This document shows, in pieces, positions 2,167 to 24,000 of a DNA stretch of 24,000 nt. A program made the position numbers and the translations under genes. Position 1 is the first letter of the stretch, and each line of letters opens with the position of its first letter. The DNA comes from Crenotrichaceae bacterium (GTDB lineage Bacteria; Pseudomonadota; Gammaproteobacteria; Methylococcales; DRLZ01): NCBI GenBank assembly GCA_011322755.1, contig DRLZ01000201.1, forward strand, positions 3,021-27,020, in the 5' to 3' direction. The notes beneath the pieces are model-generated. The model was not told the origin of the DNA. It did not search any database and saw nothing but the letters and a program-made list of their open reading frames with translations.

Positions 2167-4068
2167 CTAAAAACCTTGCGGAGTATAGCGTAGTGTAAAG
2201 AGAAAATTTCGATCATCCTGATTAAAATACCGTACTTTCTCATATTTTTTATCTAACAGATTACCAACTTTAGCCTGAATCACCCAATCAGGATGTGGTC
2301 GATATTCTCCGCGCAAATCGACAGTGACAAAGCCACCAACGCGGGTGCTGTTAAACGCATTATCAAAGCGTCGACTTTCACCACGAACAGTTGTGCCAAG
2401 TGTAAATGAGCCGATACGATAGTTTCCAAGGCTTCGATCCAGATTAAAAGTAAACATTCGTTCAGGGCGTCTCGGTAACACATTGCCATGTGTTGCTCCA
2501 GAGCTGCGGTCTGTTGGATCAATTAACGACACATTTGCAGCGATCTCAAATCCGTATAGATGTGTTGATGCGGTTAATTCCAGACCGCGAATACGTGCAT
2601 CAGAAACGTTGGCGGATGTAAATGGGGATGTGACGTCAGCAGGATCAAGCTGCACAGTAGAGATCAAATTGTTTACCCATGTCCAGTACCCATTGACAGA
2701 CCAGTCAATATGATAATGTGAGCCACGAATTTGTAACTCAACACTTTGAGACTTTTCTGGATTCAGGTTGGGGTTGGATTTAAAAAACTGGCTGTCTGGA
2801 AAATACAGTTCATTAAACGAAGGCGCTTTAAATGCACTCCCGTAGGAACCAATCACTTTAATACCACTATCAAAACGATAGCCAATCGCGATGTCACCAG
2901 TCAGATTATTGCCGAATTGCTCATTGTTATCCAGACGAATACCAGCGAGCCAGTCAACTGCTGCATAACGACCCTGATATTGAAAGAAGCCGGCCTTATT
3001 GTCACGACTTTTTTCTGAATAGTTTGTTGTACCGCCAACCAGATCATTCCAGTATTCAAAGCCCGTGGTTAACTCATGATCATCATTTACGCGATAGTTG
3101 ACCTGGGTTAGGGTGCTGACTCTGCGTGTTACAAATGAACCGGTGAATTTGCCATTATTAAAATTGTCGCTTTCATCTTTACTGCGCCCGCCAGATATGG
3201 AAATATCCAGTTGATCTGTTGGTGTGAGAGTAAGCTTTCCTCCGTATACCTGATTGACCGTTTTGCCGCGATTCTGAAAGCTGCCATCAAATTTTGTATT
3301 GCCATTTGTTTGTAAAAAATTACCTTCAAGTTTAGCAAAATCATTAAATGTATAACCTAGTTGGGCTGAACCGGCGGTTCTTAAATAACCATCGTTGTCT
3401 GGTTCATTGTCAAAACACCCTGCTTTATTCAGAATTCCTGAACAGGCGTTAAAACCATTGGTATGATAGTGACTGGCGTTGAGGCTAAACGAGAGATTAT
3501 TGATACTGCCTGATACACCGCCTGCAGCACGATAGGTTTTATCGGATCCACCTCCAACGATAGCGTAAGGCTTGATGGCATCAGTTTTTTGTCGGGTAAA
3601 AATCTGAATCACTCCACCGATTGCCTCAGAACCATACAAGCTGGCACGCGGTCCCCGCACAATTTCGATGCGATCGATCAGTTCGATTGGTAATTGTTCA
3701 ATCGCAGCTGATGCAGTTGTTGCAGAAGCAACGCGTTGCCCGTCAATTAACACCAGAACATGATCAGAATTGGTGCCACGCAGAAAGATCGAGCTGACTT
3801 TGCCTTGTCCGCCACTATTGGCAATACTGATACCAGGCGTTCGTTGTAAAGCATCCTGAACTGAAGTGACCTGCCAGCGCTCGATGTCTTCACGGGTAAT
3901 CACAGATACTGGTGATAGTGAGGCGTTTGTGGATATGGCTGTTCGCGTTGCTGTGACAAACATCGTATCCAGTGTTGTGACATTGTTGGATGATGCTGCT
4001 GCATAAACAGTGGTTGTTGATAAAGATATAGCACTTAACAAGACGTTAAGAAATTGATGGCGATTCAC
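2167..4068 (-). CDS. btuB: TonB-dependent outer-membrane vitamin B12 receptor
   Basis: The 633-aa product has a signal peptide (…TTTVYAAA), a TonB box (DTMFVTATR), a plug domain and a beta-barrel. The C-terminus (TLRYTPQGF) ends in the usual aromatic residue. The start is GTG at 4068, with GGAG 8 nt upstream. A cobalamin riboswitch lies directly upstream. Confidence 0.9.
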   Translation of the reverse strand: MNRHQFLNVLLSAISLSTTTVYAAASSNNVTTLDTMFVTATRTAISTNASLSPVSVITREDIERWQVTSVQDALQRTPGISIANSGGQGKVSSIFLRGTNSDHVLVLIDGQRVASATTASAAIEQLPIELIDRIEIVRGPRASLYGSEAIGGVIQIFTRQKTDAIKPYAIVGGGSDKTYRAAGGVSGSINNLSFSLNASHYHTNGFNACSGILNKAGCFDNEPDNDGYLRTAGSAQLGYTFNDFAKLEGNFLQTNGNTKFDGSFQNRGKTVNQVYGGKLTLTPTDQLDISISGGRSKDESDNFNNGKFTGSFVTRRVSTLTQVNYRVNDDHELTTGFEYWNDLVGGTTNYSEKSRDNKAGFFQYQGRYAAVDWLAGIRLDNNEQFGNNLTGDIAIGYRFDSGIKVIGSYGSAFKAPSFNELYFPDSQFFKSNPNLNPEKSQSVELQIRGSHYHIDWSVNGYWTWVNNLISTVQLDPADVTSPFTSANVSDARIRGLELTASTHLYGFEIAANVSLIDPTDRSSGATHGNVLPRRPERMFTFNLDRSLGNYRIGSFTLGTTVRGESRRFDNAFNSTRVGGFVTVDLRGEYRPHPDWVIQAKVGNLLDKKYEKVRYFNQDDRNFLFTLRYTPQGF

Positions 4069-4249
4069 TAAAGTTACTCCGCAGGTTCCGGTTTGACAGG
4101 AAAAATTTTGTTAAAAATAGCGGAGGAATAGGAGAGGCGTGGTTAAACTCCGCAGAAAGGTGACGAAAACACAGAGAATACCTATTAGGTATGGTGAAAT
4201 TATTATTCACCGATACAGACGAACCTTCCAGTACCGCCCTCCGCAGTAC

Positions 4250-4470
4250 GAAAATACAAGTCTCCAGGCCGGTCTCCGGACTTGTGTGGGGATGTTTAAT
4301 CCTAGTGAATAGCCTTCCCACATTGATGCAGTGGCATACATATTCACAAAAACCTGTTTCTGAAACGACGTTCAGAATTTCAAATATCACACACTTACCG
4401 TTGCGGGGGCAGCGTCGGCTTCGAACCGACTTCCCGATTATTCCGACGAATGTCGGACACCTGGCAAACA
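4250..4470 (-). promoter_or_regulatory. Cobalamin (B12) riboswitch aptamer in the btuB leader
   Basis: Read on the minus strand, the 5' part is GGTGTCCGACATTCGTCGGAATAATCGGGAAGTCGGTTCGAAGCCGACGCTGCCCCCGCAACGGTAAG. Further 3' come GCCACTG…GGGAAGGC and the B12 box AGTCCGGAGACCGGCC (plus-strand 4267-4282). All of these match the conserved core of the cobalamin riboswitch class. Confidence 0.9.
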
Positions 4471-4864
4471 GCAAAGCAGTCTAATACAGAATGTTTGTTG
4501 TGTCAAAAGGCACACCGGATGAGCGTATTATAATGATTAGAAATCAGGTGTAATGAATAACGCATTTAAAAATATTATTGTTATTTTGTATATGAGTAAT
4601 CGAAAATAGGACATATCGTTAATTGATATAAATAAAACTGTACTTTTTCTGTTATGCGCATACTATTTGCCTATCCAGTCAGCTATGTCTTTGATGTCTG
4701 GAATCTTTATGGGGTTACTAACAACCTGCGGTTACTGTGTTGGGTGGCGCTCTGAATCCTCATGTATGATTTCTACGTGGTTTTCATGCGTCTTTTGCTT
4801 TGTTTTGGCGCTGCAGAGTGTTTATATATTTTCCATTTAATAAATCTGAGGAGGAGTATCCATC

Positions 4865-5989
4865 ATGAGTTTTAATCTAATCGATGTGATTAAAGATCAA
4901 CTAAGTGAACAAGTATTAGATCAGGTAGGCAGTCTGTTGGGAGGTGATTCAAATCAGCTCAGTTCAGCAGTCGGAAGTGCAATTCCAGGTCTCTTGAGTG
5001 GGCTGATAAATCTGGGTGCCGATGCAACAAGCGCAAATGCAATGGTCAGCGCAATCAATAATCAAGATGACAGTATTCTGGATAATCTTGGCGATCTTCT
5101 GAGTAGCAAAGAAAGCCAGGAATCTTTGCTGGAATCAGGATCCAGTCTACTTTCCTCGTTACTCGGCAATAATGCGCTTGGTAACTTGGCAAGTGCAATC
5201 AGTGGATTCAGCGGGCTTGGAAGCAATTCAAGCAAATCTCTGCTAGGATTGATCGCCCCCGTTGTTTTTAGTGTAATTAAGCGCAAATTAATTGGTAGTG
5301 GCGGTTTAAATGTCAACAGTTTAATGGATATGTTTAATGGGCAAAAAGATAATATCGTTGCAGCTATGCCTGCTGGTTTTAAACAGCAGCTAAAATCATC
5401 TGGTTTTATGGGTGACTTTTCAGAGACTCTTAATGATGCGACTGAAAATCTCAGCGATGTTGCGGAGCAAGCGACTTCCTCTGGTGCTGCGTGGCTTTCC
5501 AGACTTATTCCTCTCGTTATTTTTCTTGGTGTTATTTGGTTTGCCTACAACCAGTTTCTCAAGAGTGAAATCGAAATTCCTGAGATTAAGTCGGAACCAG
5601 TTGTTGATAATTCAGTGGAACTGCAAACAAAAGCGATCAAACCGGCAGCTGTTCGTACAACTGGTAGTGTTAGACCAGTAAGTAATGTAAAAGAGGAATT
5701 GAGTGTTATTCTTGGCTCTGTTACCAGTTCGCTTGGTTCGATTACAGATGTAGAGTCGGCAGAGCAAGCGATCCCTCAGCTAAGTGTTGCCAGTGAAAAA
5801 CTTGGTGGCTTGGTAAACATGGTAAACAAGCTGCCAGACGCTGCGAGAACACCAATACAACAGATTATTTCTGGAGATGTGCCGCAGATACAGGCCATGG
5901 TTGATAAAGTGAGTGCTATTCCAGGAGTCGGACCTGTTATACAGCCAGTAGTGGATACTTTACTTGAAAAGCTGGCATTATTTGAATAA
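4865..5989 (+). CDS. DUF937-like domain membrane protein (N-terminal DUF937-type region, one TM, C-terminal extracytoplasmic region)
   Basis: The 374-aa ORF has a strong SD (GAGGAGG) before the ATG. The N-terminus (LIDVIKDQLSEQVLDQVGSLLGGDSNQLSSAVGSAIPGLLSGL) resembles the DUF937 family pattern. A single TM segment is present (WLSRLIPLVIFLGVIWFAY). Confidence 0.6.
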   Translation: MSFNLIDVIKDQLSEQVLDQVGSLLGGDSNQLSSAVGSAIPGLLSGLINLGADATSANAMVSAINNQDDSILDNLGDLLSSKESQESLLESGSSLLSSLLGNNALGNLASAISGFSGLGSNSSKSLLGLIAPVVFSVIKRKLIGSGGLNVNSLMDMFNGQKDNIVAAMPAGFKQQLKSSGFMGDFSETLNDATENLSDVAEQATSSGAAWLSRLIPLVIFLGVIWFAYNQFLKSEIEIPEIKSEPVVDNSVELQTKAIKPAAVRTTGSVRPVSNVKEELSVILGSVTSSLGSITDVESAEQAIPQLSVASEKLGGLVNMVNKLPDAARTPIQQIISGDVPQIQAMVDKVSAIPGVGPVIQPVVDTLLEKLALFE

Positions 5990-6004
5990 ATCGACGCACG
6001 AATG

Positions 6005-6037
6005 CCCTGACTTCTTTATGCGGAGAAGAAGCCAGGG
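6005..6037. terminator. Imperfect hairpin downstream of the DUF937 gene (possible terminator)
   Basis: CCCTGACTTCTT (6005-6016) pairs with AAGAAGCCAGGG (6026-6037) with one mismatch. No clear T-tract follows, so this is weak. Confidence 0.25.
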
Positions 6038-6161
6038 TGCTTCAAAGCATCGTTTGTTACTGTCAATATGCAGGGTGAAGCATCTGTCTCGGTGAGCGAA
6101 TGCTATTTTGATAATAAAAGCACTGCAAAATAGTAACCAACTTACGTTATTAACTTTTTCT

Positions 6162-6335
6162 TTATTCCTTTAGAGTACAGGAATGATGATAAGGGCTTAC
6201 TTCGGCGCAACTGGTTATGTCGGGGTAATGTCTGCACTCGCCAGCTCGTGGGCCATTGTCATTCACACAGTCATTGCCACACCCGGTGACGGTTAAAACT
6301 ATCATAAACATTGTAATCTTTATTAGAATTTTCAT
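6162..6335 (-). CDS. Small cysteine-rich putative lipoprotein (57 aa)
   Basis: The internal ATG at 6335 has GGAG 5 nt upstream. The product, MKILIKITMFMIVLTVTGC…, has a lipobox-like LTVTG|C. The mature part (~38 aa) has four further Cys and three His. The longer ORF-track start (6398) would overlap the 3' end of metG, so I disfavour it. Confidence 0.45.
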   Translation of the reverse strand: MKILIKITMFMIVLTVTGCGNDCVNDNGPRAGECRHYPDITSCAEVSPYHHSCTLKE

Positions 6336-6363
6336 AATGACTCCGAATATAATTTCTGTCAGT

Positions 6364-8433
6364 TTATTGTATTCGCATTCCAGGTTTTGCTCCTTCATCG
6401 GGTTCTAATAGAAAAATATCTGATCCACCAGGACCGGCTGCTAACACCATACCTTCAGAGACTCCGAATCTCATTTTTCTGGGCTTCAGATTAGCAACCA
6501 TAACAGTCAGGCTGCCTTCAAGATCTTCGGGTGCGTATGCTGTTTTTATTCCGGCAAAGACTTGCCTTGTTTCACCGCCGAGATCAAGTGTAAGTTTGAG
6601 TAATTTCTTGGTACCTTTTACCTGTTCAGCCTTGACTATTTTAACCACTCTCAAATCAATCTTGGTGAAGTCTTTATAGTCTATTATTTCTGCTAATGGT
6701 TCATCCTGCTGTATTTCAGGTGTCACTATAGTTTTCTCAGGCTGAGTACTGGGTTGCGAAATGACTTCAGCCTTTGGGGCTTCTTCCTGTTTGATTTCTT
6801 TTTCAATGCCTAGCATGGCATCAATATCATCTTTATTGACCCGCATCATCAATGGGTTAAAGGTGTTGATAACATGATCAACTAATGGTTTGGTATCAGT
6901 AGGCCAGGATTGTGCGTCGATGTTGAGAAACTGCTCTGTGGCAATCGCCGTCTCCGGGAGTACTGGACGTAAATAAGCCATGAGAATTCTGAACAAATTG
7001 ATGCCCATGCTACAAATTTCTATGAGCTCCTGGTTTCTCTCGGAATCCTTTGCGATTACCCAGGGTTTTTTCTCGTCAATATATTGATTTGCCTGATCTG
7101 CGAGCTCCATAATTTTACGCATTGCTTTTGCGTATTCGCGTGTTTCGTAGGAGCCTGCAATTTCAAATTGCGCATTGACGAATGAGCGGAATAATTCTGG
7201 CTCGCAACAGTTTTCAGAGAGTGTGTTGTCTCCTCGCTTTTTGATAAATCCACTACACCTGCTGGCAATATTAACGACTTTGCCAACCAGATCTGAGTTA
7301 ATGCGTTGAGTAAAGTCATCAAAACTCATATCAAGATCGTCTACACCATTGTTCAGTCTAGCGGCAAAATAATAACGTAGATGTTCAGATTTTAAATGAT
7401 CTAAGTACTGTCGAGCGGTAATAAATGTCCCTCGTGACTTGGACATTTTGTGTCCATCAATTGTTAAAAACCCATGTGCAAACACACCATTCGGTGTTTT
7501 GTAACCTGCACCGCTTAACATTGCTGGCCAGAATAATGCGTGGAAATTGATAATATCCTTGCCGATAAAATGATACAGTTCAGTGTCACTTGCTGATTTC
7601 CAGTATTCATCGAAGTCTAGCCCTTCTCGATCACACAACGCTTGAAAACTTGCCATATAACCGATTGGAGCATCCAGCCAGACATAAAAGTATTTTCCGG
7701 GAGCGTCTGGAATTTCAAAACCGAAATAGGGTGCGTCTCTGGAAATATCCCACTCTTCCAATCCAGTTGTTAACCATTCATCAATCTTGTTTGCCATCTC
7801 TGGTTGTAAATGACCTGCATGCGTCCATTCCTTCAGCATGTCTGTAAATTCAGGCAATTTGAAAAAATAATGTAGCGAGCTTTTTTCGACAGGTGTCGCA
7901 CCAGAAACAGCCGATACAGGATTTTTAAGATCACTGGGTGAGTAAGTGGCACTGCAGACCTCGCAATTATCGCCATGTTGGTCGGCAGCACCGCAACGCG
8001 GGCATTCGCCTTTGATAAAGCGGTCTGGAAGAAACATATTCTTCTCGGGATCAAAGAGCTGGGTGATTGTTCTGGTCGCAATCAAATCCTTATCGCGTAA
8101 TTGTTTGTAGATTTGCGCGGAGAGTTCTCTGTTTTCATCAGAATGTGTGCTGTGATAGTGATCAAACGCAACGCTAAAATCATTAAAGTCAGCAATGTGA
8201 TCTTTTGCTACTTGTTCGATAAGCTGTTCCGGTTCGATTTTTTCTTCTTGAGCCTTCAGCATAATTGCGGTTCCATGTGCATCATCTGCACACACATAAT
8301 GACAGGTATGTCCGCATTGTTTCTGGAAGCGAACCCAGATGTCAGTTTGAATATATTCGACCAAGTGTCCTAAATGAATAGGGCCATTGGCGTAAGGAAG
8401 TGCACTGGTAACGAGTATTTTTCTTGATGACAT
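6364..8433 (-). CDS. metG: Methionine--tRNA ligase with C-terminal EMAP/Trbp111-like tRNA-binding domain
   Basis: The product has the HIGH motif (PIHLGH), KMSKS, and the zinc knuckle [17 protein letters not shown]. The C-terminal domain reads [14 protein letters not shown]…GMRIQ. I prefer the start at [17 protein letters not shown] (8433) over the 30-codon upstream extension. Confidence 0.95.
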
Positions 8434-11690: not shown

Positions 11691-12068
11691 ATGAACAAAA
11701 CCCCATCCATCGTTATTACTGTTAAGACTAGTTATCTTGAAAATGAATCACATCCTGACAAGTCACATTTTGTCTTCGCATATCAAATCTCGATTGAAAA
11801 TACCGGCAGGTCATCAGCGAAATTACTCGACAGACATTGGATAATCAGTGATTCAAATGGTCGAGATGTCACCGTAAGAGGTGAAGGTGTCGTTGGCGAA
11901 CAGCCAGAGCTGGAACCGGGTGCGGTGTTTACTTATACCAGCACTGCTGTTATTCAGACGCCTGTTGGGGTAATGAAAGGCCAATATCGCTGGATTACTG
12001 ATGAGCAGGAATACTTTTATACACAGATTCCACAATTCACACTTTCAATTCCACGAACCCTGCATTAA
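11691..12068 (+). CDS. apaG: ApaG (DUF525) protein
   Basis: The 125-aa product has the typical ApaG pattern (FVFAYQISIENTG…RHWIISDSNGR…VRGEGVVGEQPELEPG…FTYTS). apaH follows directly. Confidence 0.9.
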   Translation: MNKTPSIVITVKTSYLENESHPDKSHFVFAYQISIENTGRSSAKLLDRHWIISDSNGRDVTVRGEGVVGEQPELEPGAVFTYTSTAVIQTPVGVMKGQYRWITDEQEYFYTQIPQFTLSIPRTLH

Positions 12069-12077
12069 TCGTTACAG

Positions 12078-12893
12078 ATGACGCTCTATGCAATTGGTGA
12101 TGTGCAAGGTTGTTATTCTTGTTTGCAGCAGTTACTCGACAAAATCGAATTTAAGCGCAATCAAGATCAGCTATGGTTTGTGGGTGATCTGGTTAATCGT
12201 GGTCCAGATTCACTCGGTGTATTGCGCTTTGTCAAAAGTTTAGGCTCATCTGCAGTGACTGTGCTTGGCAATCATGATCTGCACTTAATAGCTACTGCAT
12301 ACGGATTCAAAAAATTAAAATCTCGTGACACAATCCAAACCATACTCGATGCTCCAGACTGTAGCGAATTAATTGACTGGCTGCGATATCAGCCACTGTT
12401 TCACGTGAAACAATCTTACTGCTTGGTTCATGCTGGCATTGCTCCTCAGTGGACGATTCATCAGGCAGGTCGTTACGCACAAGAGGTTGAAACAACCTTA
12501 AGAAGCGATCAGATTGCCGAATTTCTCAAGAATATGTATGGCGACAAACCTGATCGCTGGAATGAGAGTCTTAGTGGTTGGGAGCGATTGCGCTTTATTA
12601 CCAACGTTTTTACACGTATTCGCTATTGCACGATCGACGGGGCTTTGCAGATGAAAGCGAAACACTCTCCTGCTGACAATGACGATGAAAACATTATTCC
12701 CTGGTTTGAGGTCAATAACCGTCAGTCAGCAACTGCCACGATTATCTTTGGACACTGGTCAACGCTTGGGCTTCAGCATTACCCGCATGCCCTGTCCCTG
12801 GACACTGGTTGCGTCTGGGGACGGCGTTTAACAGCTATTCGCCTGAATAGCGAACAAAAAGTATTCCAGGTACATTGTGGACAGTCAGCTTAA
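12078..12893 (+). CDS. apaH: Bis(5'-nucleosyl)-tetraphosphatase, symmetrical (Ap4A hydrolase)
   Basis: The product has metallophosphatase motifs (GDVQGC, GDLVNRGPDS, GNHD, VHAG, GHW). It shows apaG-apaH synteny, convergent with folA as in E. coli. Confidence 0.93.
   Translation: MTLYAIGDVQGCYSCLQQLLDKIEFKRNQDQLWFVGDLVNRGPDSLGVLRFVKSLGSSAVTVLGNHDLHLIATAYGFKKLKSRDTIQTILDAPDCSELIDWLRYQPLFHVKQSYCLVHAGIAPQWTIHQAGRYAQEVETTLRSDQIAEFLKNMYGDKPDRWNESLSGWERLRFITNVFTRIRYCTIDGALQMKAKHSPADNDDENIIPWFEVNNRQSATATIIFGHWSTLGLQHYPHALSLDTGCVWGRRLTAIRLNSEQKVFQVHCGQSA
12397..12412. repeat. TGTTTCACGTGAAACA palindrome, copy 2 (inside the apaH coding sequence)
   Basis: I read this directly. It encodes …LFHVKQ… of ApaH. 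Confidence 0.95.
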
Positions 12894-12902
12894 AATCACC
12901 CA

Positions 12903-13394
12903 TCAGGCTGTTTTTTCTCGCTTAAACTCTAAAAATGAAAAGGCCGGGACACTCTCTTTGGCTGGATGATCCTCTCTACCTGTTTCGACCCATGATCCGT
13001 CTAATTCTGGAAACCAAACATCTCCATGATAGTCACGGTGTATTTTTGTCAGGTAAAGCTTATGGGCGAATGGCAGCACTTTCTGATAGACATCACTACC
13101 ACCAATAAACATGATCTCTGGTGTGAGCTGATGGTTGTTAAACACATCTTCAAGACTATGGGCAATCGTGCATCCAGCTGTGTCAAATGCTGGATTTCTA
13201 CTTAATACAATATTCTCACGGCCTGGTAATGGCCTTCCAAGTGACAGCCATGTGTTGCGGCCCATTACAATCGGTTTTCCGAGGGTTATCTTCTTAAAAT
13301 GCTTCAAGTCAGCAGAAATATGCCATGGCAATTGATTGTTGATGCCGATGACACGATTTGTTGACATGGCAACAATGATAGAAATGTTACCCAT
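12903..13394 (-). CDS. folA: Dihydrofolate reductase
   Basis: The 163-aa product has ISIIVAMSTNRVIGINNQLPWHISADLKHFKKITLGKPIVMGRNTWLSLGRPLPGRENIVLS, typical of type I DHFR. Confidence 0.95.
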   Translation of the reverse strand: MGNISIIVAMSTNRVIGINNQLPWHISADLKHFKKITLGKPIVMGRNTWLSLGRPLPGRENIVLSRNPAFDTAGCTIAHSLEDVFNNHQLTPEIMFIGGSDVYQKVLPFAHKLYLTKIHRDYHGDVWFPELDGSWVETGREDHPAKESVPAFSFLEFKREKTA

Positions 13395-13670: not shown

Positions 13671-14219
13671 ATGAACTTGCTAGATTTAATAATGAATGAT
13701 TCAAACAACCAGGTCGTTGGTCAGTTGGCTAAACGTGCTGGTGTTCCTGAAAGTGAAATAAGCAATATTCTTGCCCAAGCTATACCAGCTGTTTCTCGTG
13801 GTATGAAAGCTAAAATGTCGGATCAAAATGGACTTTCCAGCATCCTGGATATTTTGAAAGACAAACAGCCGGAACGCTATATAGAAAAACCTGAAGTATT
13901 GGCAACAGATAATAGTGTAATCGATGATGGTAATTCTATTCTAGGTCAGATTTTTGGCAACAAGGATACCAGCCGCGAAGTTGCATCACGAGTCGCCACT
14001 AAAACAGGAAGTAGTTCTGGCGTTGTTAAAATGCTGTTGCCAATCATTGCAAGTCTTGCGATGGGCGCATTAAGTAAAAAAAGTAATGCAGGTGCTGCTC
14101 AAGCTCAAGCAAGTCAATCATCAGGGATGATGGGTATGGTAAAGGATTTTATTGATGCTGATGATGATGGTAGTATCGTTGACGATTTGTTCACAATGGC
14201 GGCCAGACGATTCTTCTAA
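13671..14219 (+). CDS. DUF937-like domain protein
   Basis: The 182-aa ORF has GGAG upstream. The N-terminus (NLLDLIMNDSNNQVVGQLAKRAGVPESEISNILAQAIPAV) is related to the N-terminus of the 4865-5989 product. A hydrophobic segment is present (MLLPIIASLAMGAL). Confidence 0.6.
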   Translation: MNLLDLIMNDSNNQVVGQLAKRAGVPESEISNILAQAIPAVSRGMKAKMSDQNGLSSILDILKDKQPERYIEKPEVLATDNSVIDDGNSILGQIFGNKDTSREVASRVATKTGSSSGVVKMLLPIIASLAMGALSKKSNAGAAQAQASQSSGMMGMVKDFIDADDDGSIVDDLFTMAARRFF

Positions 14220-14274: not shown

Positions 14275-14706
14275 ATGGGCTTATTTGATTTTGTATCGAA
14301 CATCGGCAACAATTTATTTAACAAAGATGAAGAAGCAGGTGAAAAAATACAGGCTTATATCGAGGAGCAAAATCCCGGTATCAACAACTTGACTGTTGCG
14401 TATAATGATGGGGCAGTTACATTAGGAGGACAGAGCGACTCATACGAAGCTGTGGAAAAAGCAGTGTTAATGGCTGGCAACGTCAAGGGTGTCAATGTTG
14501 TCCTCAACGAAGTTGCAGTCGATGAGCCACCAACAGAAAAGGTAGAGTATTACCTCATTAAATCGGGTGATACCTTGTCGAAAATTGCCAAACAATACTA
14601 TGGTAACGCCATGGATTACCCCAAGATTTTCGAAGCAAATCTGGAGGTCATTAAAGACCCTGACAAAATCTTTGTCGGTCAGAAAATTCGCATTCCTCTT
14701 GCTTAA
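14275..14706 (+). CDS. kbp: BON + LysM domain protein, Kbp/YgaU-like (potassium-binding protein family)
   Basis: The 143-aa product starts MGLFDFVSNIGNNLF…, as in E. coli YgaU/Kbp. It has a central BON-like region. The C-terminal LysM reads YYLIKSGDTLSKIAKQYYGNAMDYPKIFEANLEVIKDPDKIFVGQKIRIP. Confidence 0.85.
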   Translation: MGLFDFVSNIGNNLFNKDEEAGEKIQAYIEEQNPGINNLTVAYNDGAVTLGGQSDSYEAVEKAVLMAGNVKGVNVVLNEVAVDEPPTEKVEYYLIKSGDTLSKIAKQYYGNAMDYPKIFEANLEVIKDPDKIFVGQKIRIPLA

Positions 14707-18950: not shown

Positions 18951-20228
18951 ATGATTCACAGAATATCTGGTTTTCTAAAGCATGACCGCCACTTAGTTGT
19001 TATTCTGCTACTGGTGACTCTATTGGTGGTCGGTAGTTCTAACGCTCACGCATATACAGTTGAATGGGCTGTTCAGGGTCGAGGTGAATCCATTCTTAAG
19101 AATCCACAGATCGCTGTGGATAGCTTAGGCAATATTTATGTTAGCGGAAGTTATGGGACAGAAAGATACCTTTTGCCAGGTTCTAGCGGAAAGGTGACTT
19201 CTAATGTTGAGAAAACTAACGAAACTACGCTCACAAACAAAACAACACAGGATTATTTGTCGAAATACAATAGTAACGGTGAGCTGATTTGGGTAAAAAG
19301 CAGTGATGACAGCTTCGAAAAAATTGCTGTTGATGAAGCTGGTAATTTGTATGCGATGGGTCTTTTCATTATCAAAGAACATCAAAAAAGGTTTAGCACA
19401 AGTGTGGATCGTGTCTATGGTCTTTTGCTGGTGAAGTTTTCTACTAACGGTAACAGGGTTTGGGAGAAACGTGTTGTTAGTGACGGGATTCCTGGTAATT
19501 ACAGCAGTGGTCTTACAGACAGTGAATTTGGAGATCTAAATGGAACGAAATTTGTAGTCGATGGAATGGGTAATTTATACGTTACGGGGCATTTTTATGG
19601 AGGTGCGATTTTTGGAAAAGACGAACCAAATGAAACCAACTTTGATCTATACAGTTCTGCATATGTGGCGAAATACAATGCTGATGGTGAACTGGTCTGG
19701 GTGAAAACCAGGAATAACAATATTGACACAATTGCTGTTGATGATACAGGCTCTTATTATCTGGTCCACCAAAGTGCAAGAAGGCAATTCTTTAGTCGTC
19801 GTCGACTCCATCTGGACAAATACACAGCGAATGGCAAACGAATCTGGTCAAAACAGGTGCTTATTCCTGCGTGTGATAACGAATGTACTCGTAGAAATGG
19901 TCATTTTATTGGCTACCCTGGCATTCATGTGTCTAAGATTCTTGTTGATGGTTCAGAGAGTGTCTACATGGCTGGGTATTTTTTTAATAGTGTAACCTTT
20001 GAACCAGGTGAAATGGGTGAAACCACACTCTTAAACAAATACGCTGAAGGCAGCTACTATATTGCAAAATATACAGCCGTTGATGGCACATTTATAAGGG
20101 TGACACGCCCAGCCAATCATCATGTAATCAAAACAGGTTTTGATATTGACAATGCTGGCAATGTCTTTTTTTCTGGTGTTACTGATTTACACGGGGCTGT
20201 CACCCCTAGGTCAGGGAGAAGTCAATGA
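18951..20228 (+). CDS. N-terminal part of a large secreted SBBP-type beta-propeller protein (signal peptide plus blades 1 to 6), terminated by a frameshift
   Basis: GGAG lies 7 nt upstream of the ATG. The signal peptide is MIHRISGFLKHDRHLVVILLLVTLLVVGSSNAHA|YT. Repeats of the form D..GN.Y..G.F…FG…(F/Y).AKY…G..W.K occur, which is the SBBP beta-propeller repeat pattern. The ORF ends in the middle of a repeat unit (…DIDNAGNVFFSGVTDLHGAVT…). Confidence 0.8.
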   Translation: MIHRISGFLKHDRHLVVILLLVTLLVVGSSNAHAYTVEWAVQGRGESILKNPQIAVDSLGNIYVSGSYGTERYLLPGSSGKVTSNVEKTNETTLTNKTTQDYLSKYNSNGELIWVKSSDDSFEKIAVDEAGNLYAMGLFIIKEHQKRFSTSVDRVYGLLLVKFSTNGNRVWEKRVVSDGIPGNYSSGLTDSEFGDLNGTKFVVDGMGNLYVTGHFYGGAIFGKDEPNETNFDLYSSAYVAKYNADGELVWVKTRNNNIDTIAVDDTGSYYLVHQSARRQFFSRRRLHLDKYTANGKRIWSKQVLIPACDNECTRRNGHFIGYPGIHVSKILVDGSESVYMAGYFFNSVTFEPGEMGETTLLNKYAEGSYYIAKYTAVDGTFIRVTRPANHHVIKTGFDIDNAGNVFFSGVTDLHGAVTPRSGRSQ

Positions 20229-23200
20229 AACGATTCTGAGACACCATTTTCTTGCAAAATATAACCAGGATGGTTTTTTAATTTCTGCTGGAGAAATCGA
20301 TTTCAAATGTGATTGTTTTTCAAATTTCGATCCTGTAGATCTCGTTGATAATGCTGGCAATGTGTATGTGGTGGGGCTTTTCTTTACTCCGCCTGTAACA
20401 TTTGGATCTGGAAAAGGCACTGAGATTACATTAACCAAGAGCAAAGATCTTCATCGGCAAAATAGCGAGTTCTTTTTGGCGAAATATCAACATATTCCAG
20501 ATTTAATCACGCCAGTTACAGGGACGTCAGTCACTGTAGAAAAGCGGATCTCCAGTTTTGCAGATGATGCAGAGGAGTTTGCCACCACAGGTCTTGTGTC
20601 TTTAAACAGTGATCGAATAGTGATGGTCGATAGCAGGAGAGATGATCTTGTTACCAGAAAACCTAAGAACCGACTTGTCGGTTTACGTTTTACTGCTCTA
20701 GGAATTCCAAATGGTGCAACAATCACGCGTGCCTATGTTCAATTCCAGGCTAATCAGGAGAATAAATCAGATACTACAATTGTAACTGACTTGACCATCA
20801 CGGGAGAACTGACTGGGAATTCAACGCCATTTAATACTGAAAACTATAATATTTCGTCGCGCATTCAAACTGATGCAACTGTTAACTGGATTCCTGAGCC
20901 ATGGGATAGAGTGGGCGCATCCGGCAATGAACAGAAAACCAGCAGTATTATCCCGATTGTTCAGGAAATTATCGACCAGCCAGGATGGTCGCCAGGCAAT
21001 TCTCTTGTGGTTATGATTTCAGGGAAAGGTGAACATGATGCTGAATCTTATGATGGTATGTTAGCCGCTGCGCCATTGTTGCATATTACCTATGTTGCTG
21101 GATCGGGAAAAGGTGATTCTGCTTTGGAAGATCCGTTATCTCCTGTTGATACAGTGGTTGTTGTAGACGCGCAAATCACGGCTGGTTCTGATGACGCCGA
21201 AGAAAAAACAGAGTCTGGTTCTGTCAATCTGGTGAGCAAGGATCTTGAACTGGGTGAGAGCCACTACAAAAGCCGTCTTGTGGGCATGCGTTTTACTAAT
21301 CTGAAAATTCCGTATCAGGCCATAATTACTCGCGCCTATCTTCAATTCCAGGTAAATGATAGATCATCCAGGCCAGTGACTTTGAATATTGCAGGTGAAG
21401 CCATCGATGATGCGCCGACTTTTACTGCTTCAAAAGCAAATATTTCTTCAAGAATCAAAACCAGAGCTGTTGTTGAATGGGTTCCAAGACCGTGGATTAT
21501 TCGAGGTACAGCCGGGCCGGACCAACAATCTCCGAACGTTGCTGGTATCATCCAGGAAATAGTCAATCGGCCTGGCTGGTCGAGCGGGAATGCGCTGGCG
21601 TTTATTATCACCGGTAACGGTGAGCGTACTTCTGAATCATTTGAAGGAAACTCCTCAGCAGCACCCTCACTCCATGTGGAATTTTCAACAGCAACTGTCA
21701 GCCCAGCCCTTGATGTGGATGCAGGTTTGGATCAAGTAGTTGTTTTGCCCAATGGTATTTCACTAAACGGTAATATACATATCAACGGCTTACTGAATCC
21801 ACCTGGAATAAAAACAACCTGGCGCCAGGTAAGTGGCTCGGGTACGGTCAAATTTTCAGACCCTTTAGCCATTAAGACAACAGCCAGCTTTGATCGGGAA
21901 GGAATCTATGTTCTGGAATTGACAGCTATTGATGACAGCGTTACCAGTACTGATACAGTCACCATTTCTGTCTATCCTGTTTTGGCTTTTGAGTGGGCGA
22001 TCAATCCACTAGGTAAAAGATCTCAAGTTTTTGATATGACATCTGATGACTCAGGCAATATTTATCATATCGGCCGATTCAGCAAAACACAGATCTTTGG
22101 TCTTGGAACATCTGCTGAAACGATACTGACCAGTTTCGGAAAGAATGATATCTTCATGGCTAAATATGAAGCTGACGGTGATTTTGCCTGGGTTAAACGT
22201 GCCGGTGGGGAATTCGGTGATGCTGGTCTCAGCATCACCACAGATCGATCTGACAACCTCTATGTTTTGAGCAGGTTTGACAGGAATATAACATTTGGTT
22301 CAGGGGAAATTGGTGAAATAACACTGACCAGTAAGCGTGCCAATTTTGCGTTGGCAAAATATACGACTGATGGTGATGTGCTTTGGGCTATACGTATAGG
22401 TAGTGAAACGGGACTCAAACCGAGCAGCCTGGAATATGGAGGTATTATTTCGGATGACTCAGGTAACATTTATCTGACAGGCTACTCTCCTAAACTGGGA
22501 GCAATTGGTTCGAACGAAACGAAAGAAACCAAACTCTTTTTTGGCAGAGACCCCTATGCAGCAAAGTATACCACTGATGGAAAACTGATTTGGGCTAAGT
22601 CGCTTTATAGTCCAGGTAATAGAATCTTTTCTGCTATTACCCTGGATAAATCGGGAAATGTTTACATCGCTGGTTCTGTTTTTAATAGCGTTGGAAATGC
22701 AACTTCAGGATATCCTGTTAGTTTTGGTGAGGGGGAAGTGGAACTTACATTTCACCCCAAAAAACCAGAACTCTATATGGCTAAATATGCTGGTAGCAAC
22801 GGAAAATTGATCTGGGCAAAATATGTGGCAAGGAATCATCCTAAACATAAGCTATCGATTTCAGATATTGCTGTGAACAGTTCTGGCAACATTTTTATCG
22901 GAGGTTTCTTTGAAAGAACAGCAAGTATTGGCTCAAGACAAACAACTGAAATTAAACTCAAAAGTGAGGGACACTTCGATAGTTTCGTTGCAAAATATAC
23001 GACTGATGGCAAAGTTGTGTGGGGTAGAAGTGCTGGTGGAACAGGTTATGATATCAATAAGCATATTGCTATTGACCAATCAGGGAACCTGTATACCTCA
23101 GGTTTTTTTGAAGAAGAATTAAATTTTAAGCTAGAGGAAGGTGGTGAGGTCTTGCTCTCCAGTCATGAAGAAAATGATCAATTTATCTCAAAGTATACGA

Positions 23201-24000
23201 CAGAAGGTAAACTGGTTACAGCCAGAAGCATAGGAGGAATAGGGGGTAAACAAGGGATAGGAGAAGGAGGAATCTGCTGTGTTCGCCAGTTCATGTCTGT
23301 TGATCTTTTTGATAATATTATTGTCTTGGGAGAGTTCCAGGGCTCTGATACTTTTGGACGAAATGAAGTGAATGAAACGATACTCACAAGTGATGGTCGT
23401 AATGACCTGTTTTTGGCGAAGTACAAGGGCAGCTTTGCTTCTTCTAATCCTCCAGTTAAGCGGTCAGTTACAGTGGAAGCACGGGTACTAAGAAGCGCCG
23501 ATGACGTTGAAGAGGTGATCACGACGGGGCATGTCAATATAGACAGTGTAGATTTAGAACTGGGTACAGATGGTGAGAGGAATCAGTTTGTGGGACTTCG
23601 GTTTGATGGGCTTATTATTCCTCGTGGTGCTATGGTCACCAATGCTTATATTCAGTTTCAGGCGAAGAAGATGTCTTCAGGTGCGGCCCGTTTCCTAATT
23701 TATGATATTGCTGCGAATGATGCGTCTTTTGCTAATAGTGATCGCACTATTTCTTCCCGTCAGACCAGCAAAATTGTGGAATGGAATCCTCCACAATGGG
23801 TAAAAGGTGATGCTGGGGGAAACCAGCAAACCCCAAACATTGCCTCACTTATTCAGAAACATGTCGGAAAAGACAGTGACTGGATAATTGGTAGTACGTT
23901 GACATTCCGTATCGAAGGTGATGGCAAGCGCATTGCTGAATCATATGATGGAAATCCAGTGGCCGCTCCACTATTGCTCATTGAGTATGAACTCCAGTAA
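20140..24000 (+). CDS. Continuation of the same protein in the +1 frame: end of blade 6, blade 7, two DDAEE modules, PKD-like domain, second 7-bladed propeller, third DDAEE module
   Basis: The 1286-aa ORF has its stop codon at 23998-24000, the window edge. From about 20206 the translation (LGQGEVNETILRHHFLAKYNQDG) completes the repeat that the upstream ORF breaks off. The first ~22 codons (MILTMLAMSFF…) are the out-of-frame reading of blade 6, so the annotated ATG is probably not a real start. Confidence 0.8.
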   Translation: MILTMLAMSFFLVLLIYTGLSPLGQGEVNETILRHHFLAKYNQDGFLISAGEIDFKCDCFSNFDPVDLVDNAGNVYVVGLFFTPPVTFGSGKGTEITLTKSKDLHRQNSEFFLAKYQHIPDLITPVTGTSVTVEKRISSFADDAEEFATTGLVSLNSDRIVMVDSRRDDLVTRKPKNRLVGLRFTALGIPNGATITRAYVQFQANQENKSDTTIVTDLTITGELTGNSTPFNTENYNISSRIQTDATVNWIPEPWDRVGASGNEQKTSSIIPIVQEIIDQPGWSPGNSLVVMISGKGEHDAESYDGMLAAAPLLHITYVAGSGKGDSALEDPLSPVDTVVVVDAQITAGSDDAEEKTESGSVNLVSKDLELGESHYKSRLVGMRFTNLKIPYQAIITRAYLQFQVNDRSSRPVTLNIAGEAIDDAPTFTASKANISSRIKTRAVVEWVPRPWIIRGTAGPDQQSPNVAGIIQEIVNRPGWSSGNALAFIITGNGERTSESFEGNSSAAPSLHVEFSTATVSPALDVDAGLDQVVVLPNGISLNGNIHINGLLNPPGIKTTWRQVSGSGTVKFSDPLAIKTTASFDREGIYVLELTAIDDSVTSTDTVTISVYPVLAFEWAINPLGKRSQVFDMTSDDSGNIYHIGRFSKTQIFGLGTSAETILTSFGKNDIFMAKYEADGDFAWVKRAGGEFGDAGLSITTDRSDNLYVLSRFDRNITFGSGEIGEITLTSKRANFALAKYTTDGDVLWAIRIGSETGLKPSSLEYGGIISDDSGNIYLTGYSPKLGAIGSNETKETKLFFGRDPYAAKYTTDGKLIWAKSLYSPGNRIFSAITLDKSGNVYIAGSVFNSVGNATSGYPVSFGEGEVELTFHPKKPELYMAKYAGSNGKLIWAKYVARNHPKHKLSISDIAVNSSGNIFIGGFFERTASIGSRQTTEIKLKSEGHFDSFVAKYTTDGKVVWGRSAGGTGYDINKHIAIDQSGNLYTSGFFEEELNFKLEEGGEVLLSSHEENDQFISKYTTEGKLVTARSIGGIGGKQGIGEGGICCVRQFMSVDLFDNIIVLGEFQGSDTFGRNEVNETILTSDGRNDLFLAKYKGSFASSNPPVKRSVTVEARVLRSADDVEEVITTGHVNIDSVDLELGTDGERNQFVGLRFDGLIIPRGAMVTNAYIQFQAKKMSSGAARFLIYDIAANDASFANSDRTISSRQTSKIVEWNPPQWVKGDAGGNQQTPNIASLIQKHVGKDSDWIIGSTLTFRIEGDGKRIAESYDGNPVAAPLLLIEYELQ
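20530..21093 (+). other. Unassigned ~188-aa 'DDAEE' module, copy 1
   Basis: The sequence is VTVEKRISSFADDAEEF…RLVGLRFTALGIPNGATITRAYVQFQ…NISSRIQT…WIPEPW…GWSPGNSLVVMISGKGEHDAESYDG…AAPLLHITY. It carries an insertion where copies 2 and 3 have DLELG. Confidence 0.75.
21154..21684 (+). other. Unassigned ~177-aa 'DDAEE' module, copy 2
   Basis: The sequence is VVVDAQITAGSDDAEEKTESGSVNLVSKDLELGE…RLVGMRFTNLKIPYQAIITRAYLQFQ…NISSRIKT…WVPRPW…GWSSGNALAFIITGNGERTSESFEG…AAPSLHVEF. Confidence 0.75.
21709..21978 (+). other. PKD-like / Ig-like beta-sandwich domain
   Basis: The sequence is LDVDAGLDQVVVLPNGISLNGNI…TTWRQVSGSGTVKFSDP…TASFDREGIYVLELTAIDDSVTSTDTVTISVYP. This is the typical VDAG.DQ…W.QVSG.G.V.F…G.Y.L.L.A.D… pattern. 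Confidence 0.7.
23467..23997 (+). other. Unassigned ~177-aa 'DDAEE' module, copy 3 (C-terminal)
   Basis: The sequence is VTVEARVLRSADDVEEVITTGHVNIDSVDLELGTDGERNQFVGLRFDGLIIPRGAMVTNAYIQFQ…ISSRQTS…WNPPQW…ESYDGNPVAAPLLLIEYELQ*. Confidence 0.75.

Follow-up and report, generated by a model that had tools for sequence, protein, structure and literature searches.

The window analyzed here, a stretch of 24,000 nucleotides (nt) of contig DRLZ01000201.1 from a Crenotrichaceae bacterium (positions 3,021 to 27,020, forward strand), ends in a gene for a large protein that carries three divergent copies of a module of about 180 amino acids (aa). Our results indicate that the module forms a discrete folded domain on which selection acts and that the triplication is ancient and has been maintained at the protein level. 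The module represents a family without a curated model, a new family within a known fold, and it is probably a remote homologue of the carbohydrate-binding module (CBM) family CBM96 and the DNRLRE domains, a sister family and not a member. We predict, with a probability of roughly 0.6, that it functions as a non-catalytic extracellular binding module, distantly related as a sister to the CBM96/DNRLRE modules.

Three copies of a widespread module

All three copies lie in frame within the plus-strand open reading frame (ORF) that closes the window (Table 1; stop codon, 23998-24000). Their hidden Markov model (HMM) envelopes (20518-21102, 21145-21693, and 23455-23997) agree within about 12 nt with the positions given in an earlier note, which had recognized the three divergent copies by reading this DNA. 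In BLASTP comparisons, copy 3 is 43% identical to copy 2 (E = 5e-44) and 39% identical to copy 1 (E = 6e-35), and in a MAFFT alignment of the three copies the identities to copy 1 are 45% and 40%, with 51 invariant columns. By eye, roughly a third to a half of the positions had been judged conserved; overall, the copies are 39 to 45% identical. At the DNA level the copies are just 62 to 72% identical even over the best-conserved 90 nt, which indicates that the duplication is old, as opposed to a repeat of recent date or of low complexity. The motifs [SA]DD[AV]EE, DLELG, VG[LM]RF, AY.QFQ, ISSR, W.P..W, ES[YF].G, and AAP.L, proposed earlier as the signature of the module, are all present. Copy 1 is degenerate: as had been noticed, it carries an insertion (8 residues) in place of DLELG, where R-I-V-M replaces the D-L-E-L strand, and it lacks D32, L33, E34, and R159 (HMM numbering, used throughout), which are 91 to 96% conserved across the family. 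D69 is missing from all three window copies.

Over 716 copies from the family, 39 positions are at least 85% conserved, which bears out the view of a folded domain under selection as opposed to a low-complexity sequence. They include D16, D17, E19, E20, S30, D32, E34, Q42, R47, Q65, R101, T104, W110, W115, Q125, Q135, W143, R159, and L174.

The family is large. A word-indexed profile search returned 579 relatives (top E value, 2e-85), and an exhaustive HMMER search covered 1.84 billion representatives of protein clusters at 50% identity. It recovered 17,811 representatives at E ≤ 1e-3, 12,828 at E ≤ 1e-10, and 5,540 at E ≤ 1e-30, with copy numbers reaching 8 per protein. Among GTDB species representatives, 314 stretches were confirmed in a locus scan whose query was a 7-sequence alignment, since the alignment of 33 sequences was too diverse. 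The hosts comprise Gemmatimonadota, Chloroflexota, Methylomirabilales, Aminicenantes, Myxococcota/Deltaproteobacteria, anammox Planctomycetota, Cyanobacteria (Calothrix, Leptolyngbya), Gammaproteobacteria (Photobacterium lipolyticum, Methylobacter marinus), Kiritimatiellae, Actinomycetota, and others; Acidobacteriota and methanotrophs are also among the hosts named. The earlier statement that similar modules occur in large secreted proteins of other environmental bacteria holds, and the bacteria concerned are many.

A viral origin of the module was considered and rejected, since only 2 matches were found in 2.9 million viral contigs. In one viral genome (IMG/VR UViG_3300044712_000851, 5983-7482), the module is N-terminal in a 499-aa protein encoded in the structural gene block, two genes downstream of the gene for the major head protein (phrog_1328, E = 1e-59). 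This phage protein may be a decoration or fiber protein that uses the module for adhesion. Several small family proteins of 200 to 260 aa were observed on long-read metagenome contigs, with propeller or macroglobulin ORFs 0 to 260 nt upstream or overlapping; these proteins are probably fragments of larger genes broken by assembly frameshifts.

No copy matched Pfam-A, and 33 family members gave no consistent match with it even at E ≤ 10, PF24517 never being reported. The NCBIfam model NF033679 (DNRLRE_dom) gave the whole protein 16 bits (E = 0.0099), below its cut-off of 34, did not match the single window copies, and gave sub-threshold matches in 8 of the 33 family members (best E value, 0.0011). 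Two genuine DNRLRE domains from the fetched loci, which served as positive controls, scored 73 and 99.6 bits with the DNRLRE model. The module does not reach the curated cut-offs of the CBM96/DNRLRE HMMs (PF24517, NF033679), and no high-confidence match to a characterized Pfam or CAZy family was found. Searches of PDB sequences with a single copy and with a profile returned noise only, nothing past threshold; module-only proteins of the large collection have no precomputed Pfam domain and bear the source name "hypothetical protein"; and a literature search on the DDAEE motif found nothing relevant.

Architecture statistics are from the listed top 150 (multi-copy) representatives, which carry 2 to 8 copies each. 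Successive copies are separated by a median of 99 aa, roughly the length of one immunoglobulin (Ig)-like domain. Ig-like spacers are present between copies, and tandem copies with no partner between them also occur. The typical position in the family is C-terminal, as for copy 3, and a copy ends within 8 aa of the C terminus in 67 of the 150 (45%), the window protein included; internal and N-terminal copies are common. About 20 of 35 short tails after the last copy look by eye like sorting domains of the type IX secretion system (T9SS), Por_Secre_tail was found in 4 of 31 proteins, and a crude test found a signal-peptide-like N terminus in 100 of 137 proteins. Family proteins are exported via Sec or the T9SS, and the module is extracellular.

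Partner domains come from three samples of 9, 31, and 41 proteins (81 in total), with the 25 commonest of 48 and 34 families listed in the two alignment scans. K319L-like and other PKD domains occur in up to 21 of 41 proteins, SdiA-regulated, NHL, SGL, and SBBP propellers in about 15 of 41 genome-encoded members, cadherin-like/Big_9 domains in 10 of 41, and Metallophos or purple acid phosphatase domains in 6 of 41, 2 of 31, and 3 of 9. Calx-beta, PhoX, Peptidase_S8 (subtilase), beta-helix, and DUF11 domains are occasional, and TSP3 is also among the Ca2+-dependent repeat domains interleaved with the module. A beta-propeller followed by (PKD) and then the module is a family-wide architecture. 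The earlier description of the module as standing after each propeller is correct to that extent; it does not apply to copy 2, which comes after copy 1. Gene neighbors are not conserved, as three long contigs had unrelated neighborhoods and no conserved secretion-system neighbor was found. Proteins with a propeller, CBM96, and PKD are encoded in genes neighboring module genes. Phosphoesterase partners recur (purple acid phosphatase, Metallophos, and PhoX), and a faint phytase-like match was seen on a propeller in an ORF adjacent to one module gene (locus L080). This recurrence may indicate a link to phosphorus scavenging.

Fold and relationship to CBM96/DNRLRE domains

An AlphaFold2 model of copy 2, built with the 33-sequence alignment, has a predicted local distance difference test score (pLDDT) of 96.3 and a predicted template modeling score (pTM) of 0.91. 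As the earlier note had supposed, it is a beta-sandwich, with about 11 strands and one helix (residues 130-137). When the model was compared with the PDB by Foldseek, two CBM96 modules ranked first: 8WAB (E = 5.5e-8; template modeling [TM] score, 0.65; probability, 1.00; root mean square deviation [RMSD], 4.0 Å) and 7VBO (E = 1.7e-6; TM score, 0.55; probability, 1.00; RMSD, 6.3 Å). The BMP9, myostatin, and TGF-beta prodomains came next (TM scores, 0.39 to 0.48), and together with the C-terminal domain of latent aurone synthase these are significant neighbors (TM scores, 0.37 to 0.48; probabilities, 0.87 to 1.0). Classical CBMs stood further down with weak scores, and no enzyme was among the significant neighbors. 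As a control, a genuine member of PF24517/NF033679 was modeled as well (P0288; pLDDT, 97.2), and its model retrieved the same neighbors in the same order and at closer distance (8WAB, 0.89; 7VBO, 0.84; BMP9 prodomain, 0.50). By these models, the module shares the fold neighborhood of CBM96 and falls outside the structural range of that family itself; it would have the same fold and probably belongs to the same superfamily.

The two leading structures are characterized binding modules. 8WAB is a CBM from a chondroitinase; it binds chondroitin sulfate and has been described as a protein with a DNRLRE domain (PMC12611786). 7VBO is TM6-N4 of Defluviitalea phaphyphila Dp0100, the alginate-binding founding member of CBM96, a family that its authors equate with the DNRLRE domain NF033679 (PMC9971899). 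The published DNRLRE domain of TtPHBase matches 7VBO at an E value of 3.4e-6 and 16% identity (PMC12278694), a level similar to that of the match between our module and 7VBO, which supports kinship with CBM96. Judging by the model, the module and CBM96/DNRLRE domains have the same order of secondary structure elements, including a short helix after a D(V/I)(T/A) motif, and share a pattern consisting of a hydrophobic-[LM]RF strand, an A.[LI].[LF] strand, (T/V)W..P, and a C-terminal AP.L.V.[YF] strand. Each occurs outside the cell, often in several copies per protein, in the company of NHL propellers, PKD domains, and S-layer or adhesin-like proteins.

The other structural neighbors are less alike. 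The prodomain arm of TGF-beta, BMP9, and myostatin (PF00688; 4YCI, 5NTU) has no sequence similarity to the module, which gave no Pfam match to PF00688 and occurs in a bacterial context without a growth-factor domain; unlike the module, that arm is eukaryotic, single-copy, N-terminal to a growth factor, and dedicated to latency. The general beta-sandwich and an accessory role are also shared by jelly-roll CBMs of the classical kind (CBM6, CBM35, CBM36, and others) and by the shielding C-terminal domain of latent polyphenol oxidases. As a group, these match the module weakly (TM scores, 0.25 to 0.42; probability often below 0.9) and have no sequence relationship to it.

At the sequence level, the signal that links the module to DNRLRE domains is real but weak. 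A 25-sequence DNRLRE alignment was seeded by one genuine domain, and its database members all carry PF24517. With hhalign, the module profile reached a probability of 0.1% against a single DNRLRE sequence, 3.6% (P = 0.012) against the 25-sequence alignment, and at best 33% (P = 4.6e-4), with a 312-sequence module alignment. The DNRLRE HMM scored up to 23.1 bits (E = 2e-6) among the 716 module copies, 80 of which had at least 10 bits, whereas no copy in three shuffled sets and a reversed set reached 10 bits (maximum, 7.5). The reciprocal HMM search gave a best E value of 1.1e-4. The fold neighbors and this weak but controlled sequence similarity are the reasons for placing the module as a probable sister family of CBM96/DNRLRE. 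The earlier statement that it belongs to no named family is therefore accurate insofar as no Pfam or NCBIfam model scores above threshold, and needs amending insofar as a named and characterized family, DNRLRE/CBM96 (PF24517, NF033679), is probably a remote relative.

Several features separate the two. The module is about 30 aa longer than CBM96/DNRLRE domains and has near-invariant motifs of its own (DDAEE, SSDLEL, NISSR, and GxGxRxAESY). DNRLRE domains are marked by an invariant W-x-E with (T)W(N)N.P after it and by an ADAYV-type strand at the N terminus, and all 25 sequences of the DNRLRE alignment have W78, E80, and P89. Of these hallmarks, the module keeps only the equivalent of V.W.P, with NISSR at the W-x-E position and DDAEE replacing ADAYV. 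The partners also differ, as the module is found with propellers, phosphatases, and proteases and characterized CBM96 modules with polysaccharide lyases. Two genomic observations concern both domain types. In Methylobacter marinus A45, a DNRLRE-bearing gene (99.6 bits) is convergent to a module gene, and in another locus (L001, 1-2724) a DNRLRE domain (73 bits) lies beside a module gene and may belong to the same gene, a masked run of N separating them. Genuine DNRLRE domains encoded next to module genes indicate that the two domain types occur side by side and that neither stands in for the other.

An alignment made by eye between the module and the N terminus of TM6-N4, rebuilt from the mutagenesis primers in PMC9971899, was also considered. 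It set Lys25, Lys27, and Arg36 opposite E32 and Q41 in copy 2 numbering (E34 and Q42 in HMM numbering). Its HMMER score was negative, and it was rejected. A search for Dp0100 with the 43-aa reconstructed TM6-N4 fragment returned no candidate.

Predicted function of the module

Multiple copies, varied and unrelated partners, extracellular location, and CBM96 fold neighbors all argue for a binding module, and the ligand-binding or accessory role suggested by the earlier note fits with carbohydrate-binding modules being the nearest structural relatives. Each copy would be an autonomous extracellular beta-sandwich domain of about 180 aa that tethers or targets the remainder of its exported protein to a polymer or surface outside the cell. 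The cargo would be the two SBBP propellers in the window protein and Ig-like stalks, phosphatases, or proteases elsewhere, and tandem or dispersed copies would add avidity.

Mean-field direct coupling analysis (effective number of sequences, Meff, about 617) recovered the beta-ladder contacts and coupled the DDAEE strand with the ISSR loop, T90, and Y164, and D32 with D69/E70, which suggests that the conserved motifs converge in space. The putative site would be the near-invariant polar cluster to which the DDAEE and AESY.G strands and the ISSR loop contribute, and D32, E34, D69, and E70 would form a second, acidic cluster. The module has a mean net charge of -13 ± 5.7 and almost no cysteine. 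It is thus, in a comparison of composition only, strongly acidic, whereas the polyanion-binding grooves of characterized CBM96 members are basic; 7VBO binds alginate by a groove lined with Lys and Arg and carries a structural Ca2+ (PMC9971899). This difference suggests that recognition by the module is probably mediated by a cation (Ca2+) or aimed at a ligand that is not a polyanion. CBM36 is an example of Ca2+-mediated ligand binding, cited in PMC9971899.

Several points weigh against a binding module related to CBM96. The function is one that we infer, and the ligand is putative. The profile-profile support is weak (3.6% and at best 33% with hhalign), the three copies of the window individually miss the DNRLRE HMM (E values of about 1 to 2), and the residue-level register is ambiguous, with two competing alignments that equate either VGMRF or AYIQF with the YLRF strand. 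Copy 1 lacks several residues of the putative site, and no glycoside hydrolase or polysaccharide lyase is among the partners listed for the 81 proteins (the 25 commonest families in two scans). For a CBM, the module is unusually well conserved from phylum to phylum, and its many invariant charged residues could mean a metal center or catalysis. Finally, the gene in the window may be a pseudogene owing to a frameshift (see below).

Many Ig-like, cadherin-like, and Calx-beta repeats serve as stalks or spacers. The module could likewise be a purely structural, Ca2+-stiffened spacer that projects propellers or enzymes off the cell surface and has no specific ligand, which we consider unlikely. Its acidic, nearly cysteine-free composition would suit such a role, as would its interleaving with Ca2+-dependent repeats (cadherin-like, Calx-beta, and TSP3), its frequent cell-proximal position just before a T9SS C-terminal domain, and the structural Ca2+ that 7VBO itself holds (PMC9971899). 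Spacer domains, however, rarely keep some 40 near-invariant positions across phyla, many of them polar; Ig-like spacers already sit between the copies, and the nearest structures are ligand-binding modules.

We assign a similarly low probability to an acidic, cation-dependent recognition or catalytic domain, not a conventional CBM, for a target shared by many habitats, for example the surfaces of minerals or particles, organic phosphorus complexed with metals, or an envelope component that is universal. Such a target would explain the conservation across phyla, as well as the recurrent fusion to phosphatases, phytase-like or NHL propellers, and proteases in place of glycoside hydrolases or lyases.

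The frequent location of the last copy within 8 aa of the C terminus, and a terminal strand that ends in an aromatic residue (…LHVEY), raise the possibility of a C-terminal domain for export, sorting, or surface anchoring, via a secretion system or the envelope glycan of the cell itself. This seems improbable, because internal and N-terminal copies are common, about half of the 35 short tails resemble a T9SS sorting domain in its own right (so that in those proteins the module would not be what directs sorting), the window protein carries a classical signal peptide of the Sec type, and no conserved secretion-system neighbor was found. Attachment to the cell's own glycan would fall under the binding-module reading as one special case.

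A prodomain-like or shielding domain that caps or chaperones a neighboring propeller or enzyme until it is removed by proteolysis would account for the prodomains of TGF-beta, BMP9, and myostatin and the aurone synthase domain among the structural neighbors, for the copy at the extreme C terminus in 67 of the 150 listed proteins, and for the subtilase partners. We hold it to be quite improbable, since the CBM96 structures are closer than the prodomains (TM score of 0.65 versus at most 0.48), up to 8 copies and partnerless tandems misfit a 1:1 latency domain, and the extreme heterogeneity of the partners makes a conserved cap interface unlikely.

A cryptic enzyme or metal center on a jelly-roll scaffold, as in the folds of polysaccharide lyase families PL7 and PL18 and glycoside hydrolase family GH16, with the invariant Asp, Glu, Arg, Gln, and His residues being catalytic, is very improbable: the charged and polar residues are unusually well conserved and acidic residues covary (D32 with D69/E70), but no significant structural neighbor is an enzyme, tandem arrays and degenerate copies (copy 1 without D32, E34, and R159) are atypical of catalytic domains, and the module is often accessory beside bona fide enzymes.

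Host gene, remaining window, and significance of the family

Table 1. Positions of the gene parts and module copies in the window
Feature	Position (nt)	Strand	Size	Remarks
Upstream ORF	18951..20228	+	425 aa	Sec-type signal peptide, then SBBP beta-propeller blades
Overlap of both ORFs	20140..20228	+	89 nt	Different frames
Main ORF	20140..24000	+	1286 aa	End of propeller 1, copy 1, copy 2, PKD, propeller 2, copy 3, stop
Module copy 1	20530..21093	+	188 aa	Degenerate
Module copy 2	21154..21684	+	177 aa	Copy used for the structure model
K319L-like PKD (Ig-like) spacer	21721..21972	+		ORF residues 528-611; PF22352, 29.5 bits (cut-off, 27)
Second SBBP beta-propeller	21982..23454 (boundaries approximate)	+		PF06739, E = 8e-14
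Module copy 3	23467..23997	+	177 aa	Stops 2 residues short of the stop codon

The ORF upstream of the main ORF belongs to the same gene, which is now split, and forms its N-terminal part (Table 1). Its signal peptide can be read directly off the sequence (MIHRISGFLKHDRHLVVILLLVTLLVVGSSNAHA/YT), it matches PF06739 (SBBP) at an E value of 7.8e-11, and the blade pattern of the propeller runs on over a +1 frame change near 20205-20212 (acc cct a ggt). The two flanking SBBP propellers pass the gathering score of PF06739 (51.7 and 42.2 bits; cut-off, 20.5), as does the K319L-like PKD domain after copy 2 that of PF22352. The blades of the second propeller share an AKYT(T/A)DG..W repeat (repeat family D2), and this propeller also has a LipL53-family SBBP match (E = 2e-31) that is under the NCBIfam cut-off.

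Two further assemblies contain the identical 160-mer across the junction. One is a contig of a hydrothermal-vent metagenome, from a strain with only 98.5% identity over 20.5 kb, and the other is a Logan contig that shows 2 mismatches; the matching contigs originate from the hydrothermal-vent metagenome PRJNA290104. Because the junction sequence recurs in these assemblies, the split is real and not a one-off assembly error. Programmed +1 frameshifting was rejected, as tRNA-Pro would find no good site for re-pairing at +1 in the CCU-AGG context, and we treat the junction as a mutation or a split gene. The out-of-frame start of the main ORF (MLAMSFFLVLLIYTGLSPLG) is hydrophobic and could by chance act as a signal or anchor if this ORF were translated alone.

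The remaining window is housekeeping in character, with genes for lipoyl synthase, a TonB-dependent receptor, MetRS, Mrp/ApbC, dCTP deaminase, ApaG/ApaH-like proteins, and folA. A cobalamin riboswitch (RF00174; 4250-4479, minus strand; 99 bits, E = 6e-24) immediately precedes the gene for the TonB-dependent receptor (2167-4068, minus strand), which is therefore likely to encode BtuB; a listed ORF that overlaps the riboswitch (4046-4474, minus strand) is probably spurious. At 11691-13394, ApaG (DUF525) and an ApaH-like metallophosphatase are encoded on the plus strand and folA (dihydrofolate reductase) on the minus strand, an arrangement like that of Escherichia coli, which suggests that the DNA comes from a gammaproteobacterium. 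The window also holds two DUF937 genes (4865-5989 and 13671-14219), the second of which is followed by a gene for a BON+LysM protein (14275-14706).

The fold and the general role of such modules were known already; what is new is a large and widespread family whose chemistry and partners are unlike those of characterized CBM96 members. About 18,000 protein clusters at 50% identity carry the module, among the largest secreted proteins of environmental bacteria, and current pipelines label them "hypothetical." Defining the family beside CBM96 would give them a testable annotation as proteins with an extracellular binding module. This brings no conceptual surprise and is useful to domain databases, as a model for Pfam, CAZy, or NCBIfam. 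The fold class that unites CBM96 and the TGF-beta prodomains would gain a large acidic branch. This branch may reveal a new ligand specificity of relevance to surface display, attachment to the biofilm matrix, or the tethering of exo-enzymes for the scavenging of phosphorus and protein.

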